Shown here: positions 3,918-57,407 of the stretch, piece by piece | Position numbering within the stretch: the stretch's first letter is position 1 | How the letters are laid out: each line of letters starts with the position of its first letter | Assembly: GCF_044348765.1 (NCBI RefSeq) | Contig: NZ_JBIKSE010000004.1 | Span: 2,981-66,980 of the forward strand | Direction: 5' to 3' | Source: Arenimonas sp. | GTDB taxonomy: Bacteria; Pseudomonadota; Gammaproteobacteria; Xanthomonadales; Xanthomonadaceae | Length of the DNA stretch: 64,000 nt | The notes under the pieces: model-generated | Databases searched by the model: none | Told to the model about the DNA's origin: nothing | Seen by the model: only the letters and a program-made list of their open reading frames with translations | Position numbers and translations under genes: made by a program

Positions 3918-5896
<1,979 letters not shown>

Positions 5897-5911
5897 TGCG
5901 TATTAGACCAT

Positions 5912-22648: not shown

Positions 22649-23650
22649 CTACGGCACGTACACTGGTTCGGTAATGACATAACCGCGGGCCTGCAGGCGG
22701 TCAAGCAATCCGCCGGGTGCAATCAAGTCGGCGATATTGACCACGGCCACGGTAGAAGGATTCTTCGCCACGGCGGCATCCACCGCCTGCAGCCAGGCAC
22801 TCCGTGCACGTTGCTGCACATCACCCAAGCCGGCGCTCTGACCAATACCGGAACCGACCAAGGCATCAATGCAGGCCCCGGAAAAATCGGTTTGCGCAAT
22901 ACGCCGGTAGCCAGCGATATCGCCGACCGCCCATAGACGCCCGCGTTCGCCCATGAACTGCACATCGCGTTCGATACTGTCCAAAGTTTTCTCGAAGCAG
23001 GCAACATCGCTGAGCGCACGCTTGTTGAACTCCTTGATGAATTTTTTCGGATCGCCGATATCCACGGTGATTTCCGGGCGCGTCACCGGCACATCGGCTT
23101 TCTTGGCCAGGTCCTTGGCTTCCGGCCAGACAATGCCCTTGTTGCTTAGGCCGGCCTTGCGGATGGCTTTTTCGTACAATTCCTGCGCAGCGAAAATCGG
23201 ACGCCAGCTTTCGATATCCTTGTCATTACCGATGTACTTCTGCTTCATCACCTGCCAACGGCGATAGGTTTCCGGCTGCAGGATCTCCTGCAGCGTACGG
23301 CCATCGGGATTCTTACGCGCTTTCAAAAGCGAAGGCACCAAACCGATTTTGGCAAAGAAACCGAGCTTGCTGTCGAGTTTGACCGATGGCCCACCGATCA
23401 GCGCCTGCGATTGGGCCAGACGGCGCTCGAGCTTGATGGTTTCCCATTCCATGCCCTTGGGTACCGGCCGGATCGAGGCCAAAATCCAGACGATGTTGCC
23501 GCCTTTACTGGCCTGCCAGAAACCGGGCCCAGGCAAAACGCCTTTGACCTCGACGGTATTGGCCACCACCACGGGCGGTGTGGCCGCAACGTCCTGCGAC
23601 AGGACCGGAGTGGCGCTGATGGACAGCAGCAGAGGTAGGATGAGACGCAT
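22649..23650 (-). CDS. TraB/GumN family exported protein
   Basis: Signal peptide, VLPGPGFWQ.SKG..VWIL, N.DG.TL..IL.PE.Y.RW, W.P.FAA..L, LARLQARGY-type C-terminus. Confidence 0.78.
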   Translation of the reverse strand: MRLILPLLLSISATPVLSQDVAATPPVVVANTVEVKGVLPGPGFWQASKGGNIVWILASIRPVPKGMEWETIKLERRLAQSQALIGGPSVKLDSKLGFFAKIGLVPSLLKARKNPDGRTLQEILQPETYRRWQVMKQKYIGNDKDIESWRPIFAAQELYEKAIRKAGLSNKGIVWPEAKDLAKKADVPVTRPEITVDIGDPKKFIKEFNKRALSDVACFEKTLDSIERDVQFMGERGRLWAVGDIAGYRRIAQTDFSGACIDALVGSGIGQSAGLGDVQQRARSAWLQAVDAAVAKNPSTVAVVNIADLIAPGGLLDRLQARGYVITEPVYVP

Positions 23651-41536: not shown

Positions 41537-41613
41537 GGCTATGTAGCTCAGCCGGTTAGAGCACAGCACTCATAATGCTGGGGTCGGTGGTTCGAGTCCA
41601 CCCATAGCCACCA
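41537..41613 (+). tRNA. tRNA-Met (CAT), elongator type
   Basis: 77 nt: GGCTATG/CATAGCC acceptor stem, TAGCTCAG D-arm, CAGCA-CTCATAA-TGCTG anticodon arm, GTTCGAGTC T-loop, encoded CCA. Resembles elongator Met rather than fMet or Ile2. Confidence 0.96.
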
Positions 41614-49957: not shown

Positions 49958-50440
49958 ATGTTCACCGCCAGCCCGCTTTCCGGCAATAAAGCCGAACAAT
50001 ACGAACAACTAATCGCCCAGTGCCAAGCCCTGCTGCACGGCGAGCGTCACCGCGTGGCCAATGCCGCCAATCTGAGTGCACTGCTGTTCAATAACCTGTC
50101 GGAAGTGAACTGGCTCGGTTTTTATTTTCTCGAACAAGACGAACTGATTGTCGGTCCATTCCAGGGCCTGCCGGCCTGCGTGCGCATTGCGCTCGGCAAG
50201 GGCGTCTGCGGCGGCGCGGCACAGACCCGCGAAACCCTGCTGGTGCCGGATGTGCATGTCTTCCCGGGCCACATCGCCTGTGATTCGGCCTCGCAATCAG
50301 AAATCGTGGTGCCGCTCATCCAGAATGGCGTATTGATCGGCGTGCTGGACGTGGACAGCCCAGTGCTGAACCGCTTCGATGACACCGACAAGGCAGCGTT
50401 CGAAACCATCGCCGCGCTGTTCTGCGCCGGCAGCGACTAA
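49958..50440 (+). CDS. msrC: GAF-domain protein, free methionine-R-sulfoxide reductase type
   Basis: ANAANLSALL, NWLGFY, GPFQGLPACVRI..GKGVCG, HIACD.AS.SEIVVP, GVLDVDSP. Confidence 0.85.
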   Translation: MFTASPLSGNKAEQYEQLIAQCQALLHGERHRVANAANLSALLFNNLSEVNWLGFYFLEQDELIVGPFQGLPACVRIALGKGVCGGAAQTRETLLVPDVHVFPGHIACDSASQSEIVVPLIQNGVLIGVLDVDSPVLNRFDDTDKAAFETIAALFCAGSD

Positions 50441-50445
50441 GACGG

Positions 50446-51024
50446 CTAACGCACCACCGCATAATCGCGGGCGTCTTCGCGCCATTTCGGGGTGGCCAGA
50501 ATGCGCGGCAGCACATCGGCCGGCGTTTCTTCCAGCGACCACATCGCAATGTGCTCCGGATTCATGAATTTTTCGACAATGACCTGATCCATGAACAGCT
50601 GCAAGGGCGCATAGAAATTGCGGGTATTGAGCAGGACAATCGGGTTGAAATAGATGCCGAGCCGCTTCAGGGTGATGGCTTCGAATAATTCTTCGAGCGT
50701 GCCGCAGCCGCCGGGCAAGGCGATGACCGCATCGGAGTCGGTCAGCAGACGGTGTTTACGCTCACGCATGTCTTCCACCAGCTGTAGTTGGGCCAGTCCC
50801 GGGTGGCCCCACTCGAGATCGGCCATGAATTTCGGCAGAATGCCGATGACTTTACCGCCGTGCTTCAGCGCGCCATCGGCCACGGCGCCCATCAGGCCGG
50901 TGGAGCCGCCGCCATACACCAGGCTGTGCCCGGCCAAGGCGATCTGTTCACCCATAGTGAATGCCGCGATCTGGAATTCGGGATGGACTTGCGCGCTGGA
51001 CGCGGCATAGACGCAGATACGCAT
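50446..51024 (-). CDS. LOG family nucleotide phosphoribohydrolase (TIGR00730-type)
   Basis: LVYGGG..GLMGAVA, M.ERK..L...SDA.IALPGGCGTLEELFE, PIVLLN...FY. Confidence 0.9.
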   Translation of the reverse strand: MRICVYAASSAQVHPEFQIAAFTMGEQIALAGHSLVYGGGSTGLMGAVADGALKHGGKVIGILPKFMADLEWGHPGLAQLQLVEDMRERKHRLLTDSDAVIALPGGCGTLEELFEAITLKRLGIYFNPIVLLNTRNFYAPLQLFMDQVIVEKFMNPEHIAMWSLEETPADVLPRILATPKWREDARDYAVVR

Positions 51025-51038
51025 GGACAGGCACTCGC

Positions 51039-52262
51039 TTAAACGGAAGCCTTATTATGCCTCGGAAGTGCACGCGCGATAAGCGCCGCCAGCGCCAGCA
51101 GACCGGCAGAGACCCACAGACAGGCAGCCAGCCCCTGGGTCTGATAAATCCAGCCGGACAATACCGTACCGAGTAATCGACCCATGGCATTGGCCATATA
51201 GTAGAAACCGACATCCAGCGACACGCCGTCTTCGCGGGCATAACTGAGAATGAGATAACTGTGCAGAGCGGAATTCACTGCGAACAGCACACCGAATACG
51301 GCCAAGCCAATCATCAGCACGCCGGCGGCAGAAACGCCTTGTACCAGCGCCATGGCCATACCGGCCGGCACCAGCACCAAGGGCAGCGCCCAGTGAAGCG
51401 CGGTCCGGCCGTCCGGGGCGTGTGAGGCGTGACGGCGCCCGGTAATTGCCGGCGCTAGCGCCTGCACGATACCGTAGCCAATGACCCACAGCGCCAGAAA
51501 TCCGCCGACCTGCCAATGATCCCAACCCAACTGCGCGCCCAGAAACACCGGTAAAGCGACTACGAACCAGACATCGCGGGCGCCGAATAAAAAAAGACGT
51601 GCGGCCGAGAGGATGTTCACGGCGCGACTTTTCGACAGCAGCTCGGTAAATTTCGGTTTGGCCTTGGCCTTGCCTAGATCGCCGCGCAGCAGGAACAGAC
51701 TCGCAATCCAGACCAGCAGCAGCACTGCCGCCATAACGCCGACGGCGCCCTGGAACCCAAGCACACTGAGCAACAGCCCGCCCAGAAAAAACCCGACGCC
51801 TTTGAGTGCGTTTTTCGATCCGGTCAGCAGGGCAACCCACTGATAAAGCCTGTTCTGGACATGATCGGCTACCAGGAATTTCAGACTGCTCTTCGCGCTC
51901 ATCTTGTTCAGGTCTTTGGCGATACCCGAGAGCGCCTGCGCTGCCATCACCCAGACCACGCTCAGCATCGCGCTGGGCACCAGCAGCATGGCCAAGGCCA
52001 GTACCTGCAGCAGCAGGCCGGCATTCATGGTGCGGTTCAAGCCCCAGCGCGCGCCCAGCCAGCCCCCGAGCAGATTGGTGATGATGCCGAAGATTTCATA
52101 AAATAGGAACAGCAGGGCAATCTGCAACGGACTGTAGCCGAGCGCGTGGAAATGCAGCACCACCAGCATGCGCAGGGCGCCGTCGGTCAGCGTGAATGCC
52201 CAGTAATTGCCAGTGACCGTCAGGTACTGCTTTAGCTCCGTAGTAAGCGGCCTGCTAGCCAT
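51039..52262 (-). CDS. arsJ: Organoarsenical efflux MFS transporter ArsJ
   Basis: [70 protein letters not shown]; coupled to an upstream GAPDH. Confidence 0.93.
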
Positions 52263-53277
52263 TGGTTTTGGCTTGATCGATTTGGCCGACTTTTATTGCC
52301 AGCTCGAAGGTACGGTTGGCATAGCCCCATTCGTTGTCGTACCAGGCATACAGCTTCACCTGCGTGCCATTCACCACCATGGTCGACAGCGCATCGATGA
52401 TGCTCGAACGCGGATCGGTTTTGTAATCGCTGGACACCAGCGGGCGCTGCTCATAACCGAGAATGCCTTTCAGAGGGCCTTCCGCGGCGGCTTTCAGCAG
52501 CGCATTGACTTCATCGGCGGTGGTGGGCCGCGCCACTTCGAATACGCAGTCGGTCAGTGAGGCGTTGGCCAAGGGCACGCGCACGGCATGGCCATTGAGT
52601 TTGCCTTTCAGCTCGGGAAAGATGTGGGTGATGGCGGTGGCCGAACCAGTGGTGGTCGGAATGAGATTCAGGCCGCTGGCGCGCGCGCGGCGCAGATCCT
52701 TGTGCGGCGTATCGAGAATGGATTGGGTGTTGGTCAGATCATGGATGGTAGTAATCGAGCCATGCTTGATGCCGAGCGCTTCATGGATGACCTTCACCAC
52801 CGGCGCCAGACAGTTGGTGGTGCAGGACGCGGCGGTGACGATGCGATGCCGGGCTGGATCGTAGGTGGCATCGTTGACGCCCATCACTACATTCAGCACG
52901 CCCTCCTCTTTCACCGGTGCGGTGACCACCACGCGCTTCACACCCTGATCCAGATAGGCCTGCAGCACGGCTTTGGTTTTCATCTTGCCGGAAGCCTCGA
53001 TCACTACATCGCAGTCCGACCAATCGGTGTCGGCGATGGCTTTGTGATGGCTGACCGCGATGCGCTGGCCGTCCAGCATGATTGCACCGTCGCTTGCCTG
53101 CGCTTCGCGGTGCCAGCGGCCGTGCACCGAGTCGAAGTTCAGCAGATGCGCCAAAGTTTCGGCATCTCCAGCCGGATCGTTGACACGGACCACCCGGACA
53201 TTGGGATTGTCGGCGGCGATGCGCATCACCAGGCGTCCGATGCGACCGAAGCCGTTAATGCCGATACGTAGTGCCAT
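52255..53277 (-). CDS. ArsJ-associated glyceraldehyde-3-phosphate dehydrogenase
   Basis: [21 protein letters not shown] catalytic Cys, HKDLRRARA...[17 protein letters not shown]; 8-nt overlap with the arsJ start. Confidence 0.93.
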
Positions 53278-53301
53278 ATGCGGAACCTACAAATAAAAGG
53301 A

Positions 53302-53335
53302 ATTATATGACGGAAATATGACAGGTCTATGACGG
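53302..53335 (-). promoter_or_regulatory. Putative Pho box array plus -10 element driving gapdh-arsJ
   Basis: Minus strand CCGTCAT-AGAC-CTGTCAT-ATTT-CCGTCAT (11-bp period); TATAAT (53307-53302) starts exactly 10 nt after the second half-site. Confidence 0.78.
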
Positions 53336-53338
53336 GGC

Positions 53339-54199
53339 TCAATACGAAATTCGCACCGAAACTGGTAGATGATCCGAGGGATAACTTCCCGCGTTGGCGT
53401 CGTCCAGCACTGCATGCTCAAGCACCTCAACCGGCCCCCGAGAGACAGTGAACAAATAATCAATGCGGCGGGTTACGGCGCCCTCCACGGTAAAGCCGCT
53501 GAAGGTTCCCGATGGCCCGCTCGGCGGGCTATGGCTACTGTCGCGTGAATCGGAAAGGTGTTGCTTCAGCAAAACCATCGGCGGGGACTCCGGCTCGGCA
53601 TTGAAATCGCCCATCAGCACCAGCGGCCCACCATCGGGATTGATTTTTTCGATCTGCGACAGCAGCAGCCGGACGCTCTCGAGGCGCGCCGTTTGCCCAG
53701 CATGATCGAAATGGCAGTTGATGACCCACAGCCGCTGCCGGCTCGATGTTTCTTCGAACTGCCCGTAGCTGCAGATCCGATTCAGCGCGGCATCCCAACC
53801 GCGCGAGGGCTGATCCGGCGTTTCGGACAGCCAGAAAGTAGCGCTCTGCAGCATGGTGAAACGGTCCTTGCGGTAGAACACCGGCACGCCTTCGCCGTCG
53901 CCGCTGGCATCACGGCCCACGCCGAACCATGCGTAGTCCGGCAACGCGGCGGCGAGCTCACTGATCTGATGCGGCAGCGCTTCCTGTATGCCGAAGATAT
54001 CCGGCGCGTGTTGACGCAGCAATTCGGCAACCGCCGCTTTGCGCTGCGGCCAGGCATTCACGCCGTCGGCCGGCGTGTCGTAGCGGATGTTGTAGCTCAT
54101 CAGCCGGGCTTCTGTGGCCAAGGCGACGCCGGGCAGAAGCAATACTGCCCACAGCAGCAGGGCGAAGCCGGAAATTCCGGAGAGCGCTTGCTTATTCAA
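53339..54199 (-). CDS. Exported endonuclease/exonuclease/phosphatase (EEP) family protein
   Basis: [53 protein letters not shown]. The TTG start at 54199 overlapping the glmS stop is inferred. Confidence 0.88.
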
Positions 54200-56018
54200 C
54201 CGTGACGGATTTCGCCAGATTGCGCGGCTTGTCGACATCCGTGCCTCGCGCGATGGCGGCGTGGTAAGCCAGCAGCTGCACCGGAATCGAGTGCACCACG
54301 GGGCTAAGCAATCCGACATGGCGCGGGGTACGGATCACATGCACGCCATCGGAATCGCTGAAGTGGCTGTCGGCATCGGCGAACACGAACATCTCGCCGC
54401 CGCGGGCGCGCACTTCCTGGATGTTGGATTTCACTTTTTCCAGCAGGCTGTCGTTCGGGGCGATCACCACCACCGGCATGTCGGCATCGACCAGCGCCAG
54501 CGGACCGTGCTTGAGCTCGCCGGCCGGATAGGCTTCGGCGTGGATGTAGGAGATTTCCTTGAGCTTGAGCGCGCCTTCCAGCGCGATCGGATAATGCAGG
54601 CCACGGCCAAGGAACAGGGCATGCTGCTTGGGCGCGAACAGACCAGACCAGGCGATGATCTGCGGTTCGAGGTTGAGCGCGGCCTGCACGCTACCCGGCA
54701 GCAGGCGCAGATCATCGAGCAGTGCCTTCTCACGCGTGGCATCCAGGCGACCCTGCAGTTTAGCTAGCGTGCCGACCAGTGCGAACAGGGCGATTAATTG
54801 CGTGGTGAAGGCTTTGGTCGAAGCCACGCCGATTTCGGCGCCGGCACGGGTGTAGAACACCATGCGGCTGGCACGTGGAATCGCGCTTTCCTGCACATTG
54901 CAGATGGATAGCGTTTTGTCCTGTCCAAGACTCTTGGCGTATTTCAGGGCTTCCATGGTGTCGAGCGTTTCGCCCGACTGCGAGATGGTCACGATCAACT
55001 GTTTCGGATCGGCGTAAGCGTCGCGGTAACGGTATTCACTGGCGATTTCCACGCTGCAGGGAATGCCGGCCACCGCTTCCATCCAGTAGCGTGCGATCAA
55101 GCCGGCGTAGTAGCTGGTACCGCAGGCGAGAATCTGTACCGAGTGGACATCGGCCAACAATGTTGCGGCATCTTCGCCGAATAGCGACGGCGAAAAGCCT
55201 TCGCCCATGATCGGTTCGATGGTATCAGCCAGCGCGCGCGGCTGCTCATGGATTTCCTTCTGCATGAAATGGCTGTACGGCCCCAGCTCCATCGAAGCCA
55301 GCGACACATCCGAGCGGTGCACGGGCCGGGTAATCGTGTTGCCGTCAGCGTCATAAACCTGCACGCCGGCCAGGGTCACGTCGGCCACATCGCCCTCTTC
55401 CAGAAAGATGACATCACGGGTGGCCGACAGCACCGCCGAGACATCGGAGGCGATGAAGTTTTCACCCTCGCCCAGACCGACCAGCAAAGGGCAGCCCATG
55501 CGCGCGGCGATCAGGCGCTTGGGTTCGTTGCGGTGGATGACCGCGATGGCATAGGCGCCTTCCAGATCCTTGACCGCACGCCGGGTGGCGGTCAGCAGAT
55601 TGCCACTTTCGGCGTAGTAATGATGCACCAGATGACCGATGACTTCAGTATCGGTCTGCGATTCGAACACATAGCCGAGCGCGCGCAGGCGTTCGCGCTG
55701 CTGCTCATGGTTCTCGATGATGCCATTATGCACCAGCGCCAGTTCGCCGGAGCTGATATGCGGATGCGCATTGAGTTCGGTGACGCCTCCGTGCGTGGCC
55801 CAGCGCGTGTGTCCGATGCCGACCTGGCCGGTCAGCGCTTCGGCCTGCGCCGCCGCTTCCATTTCGGCCACACGGCCGGTGCGGCGCACGCGCTTGATGC
55901 TGTCGGACATGACCGCGATGCCGGCAGAATCATAGCCGCGGTACTCGAGGCGCTTGAGTCCATCGACCAGGAAATGCACCACATCCCGTTCCGCTACCGC
56001 TCCGACAATGCCGCACAT
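54192..56018 (-). CDS. glmS: Glutamine-fructose-6-phosphate aminotransferase
   Basis: [59 protein letters not shown]. Confidence 0.99.
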
Positions 56019-56027
56019 AAGGCTTCC

Positions 56028-57407
56028 TTAGGGTGATTTGGGTTTCTTGGCCGGTCGCTGCCAGCCATTCAAACTGAGTTGTTTCGCGCGCGCCACGGTC
56101 AGGGTATCGGCCGGCGCGTCCTTGGTGATCACCGAACCGGCGCCGATGGTGGCGCCCGCACCGATGGTGACCGGTGCCACCAGCGAGGAATTGGAGCCGA
56201 TGAAGGCGCCGTCGCCAATTTCAGTCAGCGATTTATTCACGCCATCGTAATTGCAGGTGATGGTGCCGGCACCGACATTGACCTTGGCGCCGATCTCGGC
56301 ATCGCCGAGATACGTGAGATGGTTAGCCTTCGAGCCCTTGCCGATCCGGGTTTTTTTGCTTTCGACAAAATTGCCCAGATGCACGCCTTCGGCCAGTTCG
56401 GTGCCCGGGCGCAGACGCGTGAACGGACCGAGCACGCAGTCGGGACCGGCTTGCACGCCGTCGAAATCGCAATGCGCGTGCACCACGCTGCCGGCGCCGA
56501 GCTCGACATCCTTCAATCGGCAGAACGGCCCGATGCGCACGCCGTCATGCAGCACCACGCGGCCTTCGAACACAACATCGACATCGACTTCGACATCCAT
56601 GCCGGCGCAGACCGAACCGCGGATATCGACACGGGACGGGTCAGCGAAACGCACGCCTTCGCGCATCAGGGCTTCAGCCTGCCGACGCTGGTAGCGACGT
56701 TCCAGTACCGCCAGTTGCAGCGCATCATTGGCGCCGTCAGCTTCACCGGCACTGAGGCAGCCCACGGCTTGTGCCGGCCTGCCTTCGCCCGCGGCCATCG
56801 CGAAAATATCGGTCAGGTAGTATTCGCCCTGGGCGTTGGTATTGCCCAGCCCGGCCAGCCAGCGTCGCAGCATGGCGGCATCGGCACAGACCACGCCGGT
56901 ATTGATCTGCCGCACCGCTTTCTGCGCAGCATCGGCATCCTTCTGTTCGACAATCGCCTGCACCCGGCCATCCTTGTCGGTCAACACCCGGCCGTAGCCG
57001 GTGGGATCGTCCAGGGTTTCGGTCAATACCGCGGTGCCGCCGTCAGCGGCGGCCAGCAGCTGGCGCAGGGTGGTTTCGGTAATCAGTGGCACATCGGCGT
57101 ACAGCACTAGCACCTGGGCGCCATCCGGAACGCCGGGCATGGCCTGCAACACGGCATGGCCAGTACCCAGCTGCTGCATCTGTTCGGCCCAATGCAGATC
57201 GGCATCCGCGGCGAACGCGGCCCGGACCTGATCGCCGCTATGGCCGTAAACCACATGGATGCCTTCAGCGGCAAGCCCGCGGGCGGTGGTAATTGCATGA
57301 CCGAGCATGGCACGTCCGGCAATCTGCTGCAGCACCTTCGGGCGCCGCGACTTCATGCGCTTGCCTTCGCCGGCGGCCAGAATGATGACATGTAAGGGCT
57401 TTTGCAT
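56028..57407 (-). CDS. glmU: Bifunctional UDP-GlcNAc pyrophosphorylase/GlcN-1-P acetyltransferase
   Basis: [30 protein letters not shown], hexapeptide repeats, [19 protein letters not shown]. Confidence 0.98.

Follow-up and report, generated by a model that had tools for sequence, protein, structure and literature searches.

How does a bacterium deal with arsenate when its phosphate transporters are open? Arsenate is a mimic of phosphate that enters cells via the phosphate transporters, and how cells cope with it when these are open in phosphate-poor water has long been asked of both lakes and oceans. The only pathway known to us that removes arsenate without reducing it is the pairing of a glyceraldehyde-3-phosphate dehydrogenase (GAPDH) with the exporter ArsJ. 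Such a gapdh-arsJ pair, with a LOG-family gene behind it, lies in the 64,000-nt stretch of DNA analyzed here, from an uncultured freshwater Arenimonas sp. (contig NZ_JBIKSE010000004.1, positions 2,981 to 66,980; hereafter the window), and an earlier note made from the letters of this stretch had proposed that the pair is wired to phosphate starvation through a Pho box instead of to arsenic through ArsR, as an anticipatory system of arsenate export. What, then, controls it? We conclude that the 61-nt gap upstream of gapdh is probably a PhoB-dependent promoter of the Pho regulon, from which arsenate export by a gapdh-arsJ-LOG operon would be induced by phosphate starvation. The regulatory step of this proposal is built on the match to the PhoB consensus, on its geometry relative to the -10 hexamer, on its conservation as a footprint among relatives and on a convergent case in Marinobacter, from which PhoB binding and induction at low phosphate are predicted; these lines support the earlier proposal in part, and the benefit to the cell under arsenate is its presumed physiological rationale.

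The gap lies between the end of the upstream open reading frame (ORF) at 53339 and the start of gapdh at 53277, and spans 53278-53338. Read along the minus strand, its sequence is TGA GCC CCGTCAT AGAC CTGTCAT ATTT CCGTCAT ATAAT TCCTT TTATTT GTAGGTTCCGCAT ATG, and the 34-mer at 53335-53302 is CCGTCATAGACCTGTCATATTTCCGTCATATAAT. The three half-sites match CTGTCAT at 6/7, 7/7 and 6/7 positions and are separated by the spacers AGAC and ATTT (Table 1). The earlier note had described half-sites at an 11-bp period, a perfect TATAAT beginning 10 nt after the second of them and a third half-site overlapping the -10 edge, and each of these details proved exact to the base, with TATAAT at 53307-53302 sharing its first T with the third half-site. 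In a repeat search the only family resolved was CYGTCATA, an 8-nt unit present three times with a spacing of exactly 11 nt; 53260-53350 contains neither an inverted repeat nor a dyad. The copies are not identical 11-mers, so that the array is no microsatellite.

How exceptional is this array? The pattern CYGTCAT-N4-CYGTCAT with up to two mismatches occurs only at the gapdh promoter in the 64-kb window, and the triple with up to three mismatches occurs once, against 0.01 expected from shuffles; base composition predicts 1.6e-7 exact triples per window. When compared with CTGTCAT-N4-CTGTCAT, both registers of the array score 13/14, and the next best of the approximately 128,000 window positions scores 11/14. 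A position weight matrix was trained on eight half-sites from E. coli pstS, phoA and phoB, such that its consensus is that of E. coli and the host's own may differ. Of the 127,958 positions scored with this matrix, the two gapdh-promoter registers take the top two places with 25.5 and 23.2 bits; the window background averages -19.6 bits (sd 7.2), and the E. coli training boxes score 20-32 bits. Moreover, a promoter scan of the gap returned one promoter-like site at TATAAT (10/12 matches) with a -35-like TAGACC and a 16-nt spacer. The TAGACC is not kept in relatives, and the absence of a conserved -35 fits an activator-dependent promoter.

Comparison with experimentally known Pho promoters places the array in a familiar setting. 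A published account (PMC4447250) gives the PhoB consensus and the pair of 11-bp repeats that PhoB contacts, and E. coli K-12 phoA reads CTGTCATAAAGTTGTCAC, 10 nt, TATAGT, with the same spacing at pstS and phoB. The window promoter shares with all three the CTGTCAT-type 7-mers, the 11-bp phase, a second repeat that ends 10 nt before the -10 and the lack of a -35, so that the geometry claimed in the earlier note, a box replacing the -35 about 10 bp before the -10, is that of the E. coli promoters. These also carry a third in-phase repeat that ends on the first base of the -10 (TTGTCCT/ATTTT, GAGACTT/ATAGT and CTGACGC/ATAAT across the pstS, phoA and phoB set). The placement of a third repeat at the -10 follows from the 11-bp phase, and only its consensus quality is unusual in the window, whereas it is degenerate in E. 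coli. The genes behind the box also differ, being an arsenate-export pair in the window and phosphate-acquisition genes in E. coli. A genome scan for GTCAT-N4-CTGTCAT-N4-CYGTCAT returned at least 119 new loci, and at least 20 proteobacterial ones stand directly before co-directional pstS, pstSCAB or phoB-phoR, with examples in Psychrobacter, Methylobacterium and Limnobacter. Perfect 11-bp CTGTCAT-N4 arrays without a nearby pho gene were also found in Bacteroidota, Planctomycetota, Actinomycetota and one archaeon (within L182-L300, e.g. L199, L205, L215, L237 and L284); for this reason the pattern alone is not diagnostic outside Proteobacteria, where it is a source of false positives.

Could these repeats be bound by another regulator of the OmpR/PhoB family that answers to a signal other than phosphate? 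Direct repeats at 11 bp are generic for this family, GTAA(C/T) recurs in the clade in place of GTCA(T/C) so that specificity may differ slightly, and the comparison is made with PhoB promoters from outside the lineage. However, the TGTCA(T/C) core with A/T-rich spacers is the PhoB consensus itself, the same triple pattern precedes pstS and phoB in many Proteobacteria, and the box stands as far from the -10 as in the E. coli Pho promoters, which together make this alternative unlikely in our judgment.

The identity of the genes behind the promoter is secure at the level of protein families. The gapdh product scores 578.6 bits on the NCBIfam profile NF033735 'ArsJ-associated GAPDH' (cut-off 450) and 635 bits on PRK08955, and the catalytic motif SCTTNC is readable in it. 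The arsJ product scores 622.8 bits on NF033734 ('MFS_ArsJ', 'organoarsenical efflux MFS transporter ArsJ'; cut-off 400). The two genes overlap by 8 nt at 52255-52262 (ATGGCTAG), where the arsJ start overlaps the gapdh stop, as the earlier note had read them; they are adjacent, co-directional and translationally coupled, an arrangement that fits co-transcription. Their adjacency and strand arrangement are kept in all related loci compared. Arsenate resistance by export of 1-arseno-3-phosphoglycerate is predicted from the family membership of both proteins. The LOG gene starts 14 nt after arsJ in the window, and a co-directional LOG follows arsJ after 13-84 nt in every Arenimonas-clade locus long enough to show that region; LOG probably belongs to the operon as a third gene and would be co-transcribed with the pair.

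None of the hallmarks of an ArsR-controlled operon (an adjacent arsR, a dyad operator, clustering with arsC, acr3/arsB or arsH) was found in the window. Pfam or NCBIfam scans of approximately 46 main ORFs across the 64 kb detected no ArsR, ArsC, Acr3, ArsB or ArsH, and no scanned ORF carries HTH_5 or HTH_20. Eight ars seed proteins (E. coli ArsR, ArsB and ArsC, together with Acr3, ArsH, two LMWP-type ArsC and one LMWP+HTH_5 ORF) gave no tblastn match in the window at E<=1e-4, in agreement with the earlier note, which had seen the module standing without these genes. Likewise, no pst or pho gene is present among the scanned ORFs, and E. coli PstS, PstC, PstA, PstB, PhoU, PhoB, PhoR and PhoA as queries gave nothing usable in the window or in any fetched locus.

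Is the array maintained by selection? An identical GAPDH protein was found on metagenome contigs with the same gene order. Two Arenimonas metagenome-assembled genomes (MAGs; L087 and L088), found via the protein of the gene upstream of the box, an endonuclease/exonuclease/phosphatase (EEP)-family gene, encode GAPDH proteins 93% and 91% identical and ArsJ proteins 94% and 84% identical to those of the window. Both MAGs carry all three half-sites and TATAAT in exactly the form of the window; the first spacer (AGAC in the window, GGCG and CGGT in the MAGs) and the flanks differ. A composite pattern (GTCAY-N5-YGTCAY, then 29-59 nt, then DNA for INGFGRIG), which by its design can find only box-bearing loci, gave 13 matches in GTDB genomes, six of them ArsJ-type (four Arenimonas, Marinobacter sp. 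CHS3-4 and Nitrincola), and 15 in metagenomes, eight of them ArsJ-type and all of these Arenimonas-like gapdh(-arsJ-LOG) loci. Among GAPDH genes with the exact box 29-59 nt upstream, 14/28 are thus ArsJ-type. In a Thioalkalivibrio MAG (L174:359-455), a non-ArsJ-type GAPDH, 48% identical, stands behind CCGTCAT-CGGC-TTGTCAT, 10 nt and GATACT, the correct Pho geometry, on a contig that ends inside the GAPDH gene.

The 13 pattern-found promoters of the Arenimonas clade vary within the Y/T-C alternations of the consensus. Across the aligned clade, site 1 reads CCGTCAT, CCGTAAC, GTGTAAC or CTGTAAA, being perfect in the EEP-bearing subclade and degenerate outside it (CCGTAAC, GTGTAAC, CTGTAAA, ATGTAAT); the first spacer is A/T-rich or G/C-rich; site 2 reads CTGTCAT, TTGTCAT, CCGTCAT, CAGTCAC, CTGTCAC or AAGTCAT; the second spacer is ATTT, ACAC, AATC or ATTA; and site 3 reads CCGTCAT, ACGTCAT, CTGTCAT or TTGTCAT, near-consensus in most members and decayed in L318 (CCGGGCG) and L322 (GCACGCT). 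The -10 reads TATAAT, TAAAAT or TACAGT in the pattern-found clade promoters, TAGCAT in L322 and TAGAAT in Marinobacter; T-12, A-11 and T-7 are kept in all of these, which is the signature of a working -10, and a TAnnnT hexamer overlaps site 3 in every arsR-less sequence aligned. Downstream, TTATTT is invariant in 12 sequences of the Arenimonas main clade, in which the 5 nt before it vary, and is absent in locus L178 and in Marinobacter. It may mark the transcription-start region, with a start expected near 53294-53296, or serve as the -10 for a box made of sites 2 and 3. The latter role was judged less likely, as nothing resembling a -10 stands at that place in L178 or Marinobacter and the TAnnnT at site 3 is universal in the arsR-less alignment.

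This conservation bears on the possibility that the promoter is effectively constitutive and its array only the remnant of a box in decay, or repeats that arose by chance. Such decay has occurred in one relative, L318, whose box is decayed beside an intact -10, and the perfect tandems unrelated to Pho genes in other phyla are a reminder that the pattern can arise elsewhere. Set against these are the chance expectation and non-identical copies given above, the half-sites kept while spacers and flanks diverge, and the independent Marinobacter layout described below, and we regard a relic or chance origin as highly improbable.

Pattern scans find only boxes, and for this reason a motif-independent sample was taken by ArsJ identity alone: ArsJ homologues at 76-86% identity were drawn from the protein database and their contigs fetched. 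All of the loci occupy the same slot, glmS ... gapdh-arsJ-LOG-GAF-bioD-RND. L317, with a run of N at the promoter, and L321, L323 and L326, whose contigs end before it, were left out as uninformative. The five distinct informative promoters (Table 1; L324 and L325 are identical) comprise one with three half-sites, three with two half-sites and one with one good and one weak half-site, and wherever it is readable a clear TAnnnT -10 stands in phase with the array. On these alignments the array is a clade-wide feature of variable strength, with its strongest form in the window, that coexists with arsR in some members. The same 11-bp repeat, which the earlier note proposed to look for at all arsR-less gapdh-arsJ loci, is present in most of the Arenimonas clade and in Marinobacter sp. 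CHS3-4.

The sample also revealed two loci, L319 and L320, in which an ArsR-family gene with PF12840 (HTH_20) and a C-terminal CCx4C motif stands between the box and gapdh. The idea of a Pho box in place of ArsR accordingly stands for the window lineage and fails for the clade as a whole, in which these two loci carry both. They raise a second alternative, namely that arsenic control has been kept through an ArsR encoded elsewhere in the genome and that the box adds a basal or additive phosphate input. Arsenic-responsive control in close relatives is suggested by L319 and L320 and by L309, in which acr3 lies approximately 550 nt upstream. However, no arsR is present in the 64 kb of the window, the 61-nt gap holds no inverted repeat or dyad, and the window has nothing that corresponds to the dyad-like TTCGA-N6-TCGAA of L320. 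We give control by a distant ArsR a small chance of being correct and retain the PhoB-dependent promoter as the favored reading.

What is the role of the third half-site, which shares a base with the -10? The earlier note had suggested that it caps expression at high PhoB~P, and this suggestion is not supported, given that the half-site resembles the consensus, follows the tandem phase and stays close to consensus in most clade members. We think instead that it forms part of the activating array, because it is strong, tandem and kept in most of the clade, and the same kind of junction, of a perfect half-site and TAGAAT, is present at 23709-23676. The only experimental precedent found for a cap is the study of Gao and Stock 2018 (PMC6194859), in which the E. 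coli phoB promoter is repressed, when PhoB~P is abundant, through a PhoB site that lies at its -10. The two cases are alike in that a PhoB-type site overlaps the -10 of a promoter that PhoB activates or, in the window, is predicted to activate. In E. coli this site is nonetheless weak, antisense and made of two half-sites, whereas that of the window is a single consensus half-site in the sense orientation and in phase with the activating box.

A stronger form of the cap idea holds that PhoB is here mainly a repressor or ceiling, such that the pair of sites 2 and 3 (-29 to -12) occludes the -10 and the operon is shut or capped in deep starvation. The best-conserved unit of the array is indeed this pair with its ATTT spacer; a stronger site at the E. 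coli phoB -10 region gives deeper repression (PMC6194859), and the output of phoB and ugpB reporters declines when PhoB~P is high (PMC4447250). Yet the promoter has no conserved -35 or extended -10 and would be weak without an activator; in Marinobacter, L178 and L322, good sites 1 and 2 occupy the place that is canonical for activation; strong induction is known for E. coli pstS, phoA and phoB with their degenerate in-phase third repeat, which ends on the first base of the -10; and the E. coli site that mediates repression differs from half-site 3 in being weak and antisense. A mainly repressive PhoB is thus improbable, and activation through the array remains the interpretation that we favor.

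Several points weigh against activation by PhoB and in part recall the alternatives above. The regulator is assigned from a pan-proteobacterial consensus only, and the host's own Pho promoters may differ from it. Sites 2 and 3, the best-conserved pair, abut the -10, and the activating pair could differ from sites 1 and 2; PhoB bound at this very position represses the E. coli phoB promoter (PMC6194859). The enrichment of ArsJ-type genes behind the exact box is dominated by one genus, and box strength is uneven in the clade, being decayed in L318 and reduced in L322 to two GTAAT-type repeats only. Finally, an ArsR encoded elsewhere in the genome could act in trans.

How did this arrangement come about? 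In neighbor-joining trees of GAPDH+ArsJ, and of ArsJ alone, the slot-resident gapdh-arsJ-LOG loci of Arenimonas are monophyletic and stand apart from the ArsR/ArsC-linked loci of Lysobacterales, including those of other Arenimonas (L054, L028). The arsR-bearing L319 and L320 fall inside the slot clade and are not sisters. The coexistence of box and ArsR in these two loci makes loss of arsR the likelier history for the window lineage, and an ancestral arsR with repeated loss is the simpler account because the outgroups are ArsR-linked. The ancestor was, as read from neighbor-joining trees only, likely an arsR-gapdh-arsJ operon behind a box, and loss of arsR in the window lineage would have left phosphate status as the only cis-encoded input.

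A comparable layout occurs in Marinobacter sp. CHS3-4 (L173), where CTGTCAC-TGGG-CTGTCAC-ATTG-ATGTCAT+AGAAT precedes a stand-alone gapdh-arsJ pair. This locus is nested among Marinobacter loci with ArsR, ArsH and Acr3, its pair is flanked by a uvrD-like helicase gene and a mod-like ABC transporter, and no LOG follows its arsJ; by its phylogenetic position and setting it looks like an independent origin. Among the best 80 ArsJ loci of GTDB genomes, approximately 65 have ars genes within 6 kb, and none of those listed, which are mostly ArsR-linked loci of other genera and do not include the slot relatives, has a box above 10/14 within 250 nt of gapdh. Nitrincola alkalilacustris (L179) was considered as a further Pho-wired example and was not counted, for arsR lies directly upstream and no good in-phase -10 is present. 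Its 125-nt gap between arsR and an ArsJ-type gapdh (L179:1078-1503) contains TTGTCAT-ACTC-ATGTCAT, which might be a Pho box or an operator for ArsR, or have arisen by chance.

Taken together, these loci allow a broader scenario that we offer tentatively, at somewhat less than even confidence: within Gammaproteobacteria, gapdh-arsJ would have entered the Pho regulon on two or more occasions, one in a clade of freshwater Arenimonas and one in a Marinobacter, passing from ArsR control through box and arsR together (L319, L320) to phosphate control only (the window). Arsenate would then be expelled whenever high-affinity phosphate uptake is on, with no sensing of arsenic, and the co-transcribed LOG enzyme would link this response to the breakdown of nucleotides in phosphate starvation.

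The following mechanism would account for the favored reading. Under phosphate limitation, phosphorylated PhoB would bind the in-phase CYGTCAT array at about -40 to -12 and recruit RNA polymerase to a promoter with a consensus -10 and no -35. GAPDH would then convert arsenate that has leaked in via the phosphate transporters into 1-arseno-3-phosphoglycerate, and ArsJ would export this product by the mechanism reported for the Pseudomonas ars-operon pair.

Is such a link already known? The Prochlorococcus mfs is reportedly an ArsJ orthologue induced by phosphate starvation (Martiny and colleagues, 2006). The cyanobacterial systems resemble the window in tying a pair of arsenate-handling GAPDH and MFS proteins to the phosphate-limitation response. 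In Prochlorococcus phosphate-acquisition islands, gap1 and mfs are listed with arsR, chrA, phoA, phoBR and pstS (PMC10504305), and RNA-seq of Nodularia spumigena CCY9414 under phosphate limitation gave log2 fold changes of 1.6-2.4 for the ArsJ-associated GAPDH and 1.2 for ArsJ (PMC9846622). The Nodularia pair differs from that of the window in that it lies beside arsR and sphX, is modestly induced and belongs to another phylum and regulator lineage; no Pho box is reported for it in the literature found. The GAPDH-ArsJ arsenate-resistance pair was described in the ars operon of Pseudomonas aeruginosa DK2 by Chen, Yoshinaga, Garbinski and Rosen 2016, according to the passages of PMC13556079 and PMC6514093 that cite it. 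The window pair belongs to the same protein families and is likewise adjacent, co-directional and coupled, but lies outside an ars cluster, with no adjacent arsR, in a housekeeping slot (atp-glmU-glmS ... bioD), with LOG after it and a Pho box before it. A literature search returned no paper joining ArsJ with 'Pho box', nor one joining GAPDH, PhoB, Pho box and arsenate. The earlier note's tentative remark that this link might not have been described accordingly holds for the promoter itself, and the Nodularia and Prochlorococcus data anticipate part of it. What is new is a regulatory variant of a known module in a known regulon, together with an evolutionary series, and not a new kind of system.

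If correct, a promoter link between the Pho regulon and GAPDH-ArsJ would be a simple and testable case of anticipatory regulation, and the related loci (ArsR only, box with ArsR, box only) would form a natural series for the rewiring of an operon from sensing a toxin to sensing the conditions of its entry. It would also explain pairs of the gap1/mfs type in the phosphate-stress islands of cyanobacteria. The practical value is modest: genes labelled as a 'second GAPDH', and the Pho regulons of Xanthomonadales-like bacteria, could be annotated better.

Table 1 Features of the gapdh-arsJ locus in the window, and promoters of related loci sampled by ArsJ identity
Feature	Position	Strand	Remarks
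glmU	56028-57407	-	
glmS	54192-56018	-	
Endonuclease/exonuclease/phosphatase (EEP)-family gene	53339-54319, likely start 54238	-	PF03372; signal peptide, cut before TEA
Pho-box half-site 1, CCGTCAT	53329-53335	-	about -40 to -34 if TATAAT is the -10
Pho-box half-site 2, CTGTCAT	53318-53324	-	about -29 to -23; ends 10 nt before TATAAT
In-phase half-site 3, CCGTCAT	53307-53313	-	about -18 to -12; last T is first T of the -10
-10 hexamer TATAAT	53302-53307	-	starts 10 nt after half-site 2
TTATTT, conserved, 10 nt after half-site 3	53291-53296	-	candidate start region or alternative -10
gapdh, ArsJ-associated glyceraldehyde-3-phosphate dehydrogenase, 340 aa	52255-53277	-	NF033735; Pfam Gp_dh_N and Gp_dh_C
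arsJ, MFS exporter, 407 aa	51039-52262	-	NF033734
LOG / TIGR00730-family gene, 192 aa	50446-51024	-	TIGR00730 146 bits (cut-off 96); PF03641
L324/L325 promoter (identical)			ATGTAAT-TTTC-CTGTCAT-AATT-CAGTCAT+AAAAT
L322 promoter			CCGTAAT-CGTG-CCGTAAT, decayed third repeat, TAGCAT in phase
L318 promoter			CTGTCAC, weak second repeat, third lost, TATAAT in phase
L319 promoter			TCGTCAT-GATT-TTGTCAT+ATATT, before ArsR-family gene between glmS and gapdh
L320 promoter			CCGTCAT-AATG-CCGTCAC+ATATT, before ArsR-family gene between glmS and gapdh

The minus-strand order around the promoter is atp operon, glmU, glmS, EEP, the 61-nt gap, gapdh, arsJ and LOG, and beyond LOG follow a convergent GAF-domain gene and bioD. 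The EEP gene overlaps the 3' end of glmS and has no Pho box of its own, the best score in 54150-54650 being below 10/14. L170, L312 and L318 lack this gene, and their distance from the glmS stop to half-site 1 is 2 nt (L312, L318) or approximately 90 nt (L170). The best relatives of EEP outside three Arenimonas MAGs are from Bacteroidota, at no more than 53% identity. By this distribution, EEP looks like a lineage-specific insertion just upstream of the box, outside the module, and acquired horizontally. The space between glmS and the box is variable in the clade, holding nothing, EEP, an OsmC-like gene (L303:511-930), acr3 with an OsmC-like gene (L309:2-747) or arsR (L319:1115-1441; L320:384-1419, with a sulfotransferase-like gene), and the box is kept throughout. 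In E. coli K-12 (L180, 3904000-3916000), atpC-glmU-glmS is directly followed by the Pho-regulated pstSCAB-phoU, and the Pho-box gapdh-arsJ unit of Arenimonas, downstream of glmS, sits in the corresponding position. In nine loci of Flavobacteriales/Crocinitomicaceae (L159, L162, L149, L165, L143, L137, L166, L141 and L157), homologues of EEP and LOG occur as convergent neighbors, with LOG proteins 47-48% identical to that of the window.

The module lies in a housekeeping chromosomal region, in which profile scans identified malQ-like, GH43 and thiC genes, two RND pumps, kdtA, glnE and groEL, and further dsbD, aroQ, accBC, prmA, purH, purD, moeA and the atp operon. The thiC gene is preceded by a TPP riboswitch at 5811-5899 (minus strand; 69 bits, gathering score 54.3), and a single tRNA-Met(CAT) gene at 41537-41613 (plus strand). 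An Rfam search over 50000-54500 returned nothing credible, its only match being RT-15 at E=0.3, well under the gathering score of that family. Lastly, a second candidate Pho-type promoter is present at 23709-23676 on the minus strand, TTGCAAC-ATTC-TTCACAT-CAAC-CTGTCAT+AGAAT, the last T of the third repeat being also the first base of TAGAAT. It follows the groEL terminator hairpin, lies 28 nt before the ATG (23649) of a TraB/PrgY/GumN-family gene with a signal peptide (22649-23649, minus strand) and has the third-best matrix score in the window, 20.1 bits. The window contains two exact matches to YGTCATANAAT, one in this promoter and one in that of gapdh, against approximately 0.07 expected by a composition estimate, and the promoter at 23709-23676 may belong to a second member of the same regulon.

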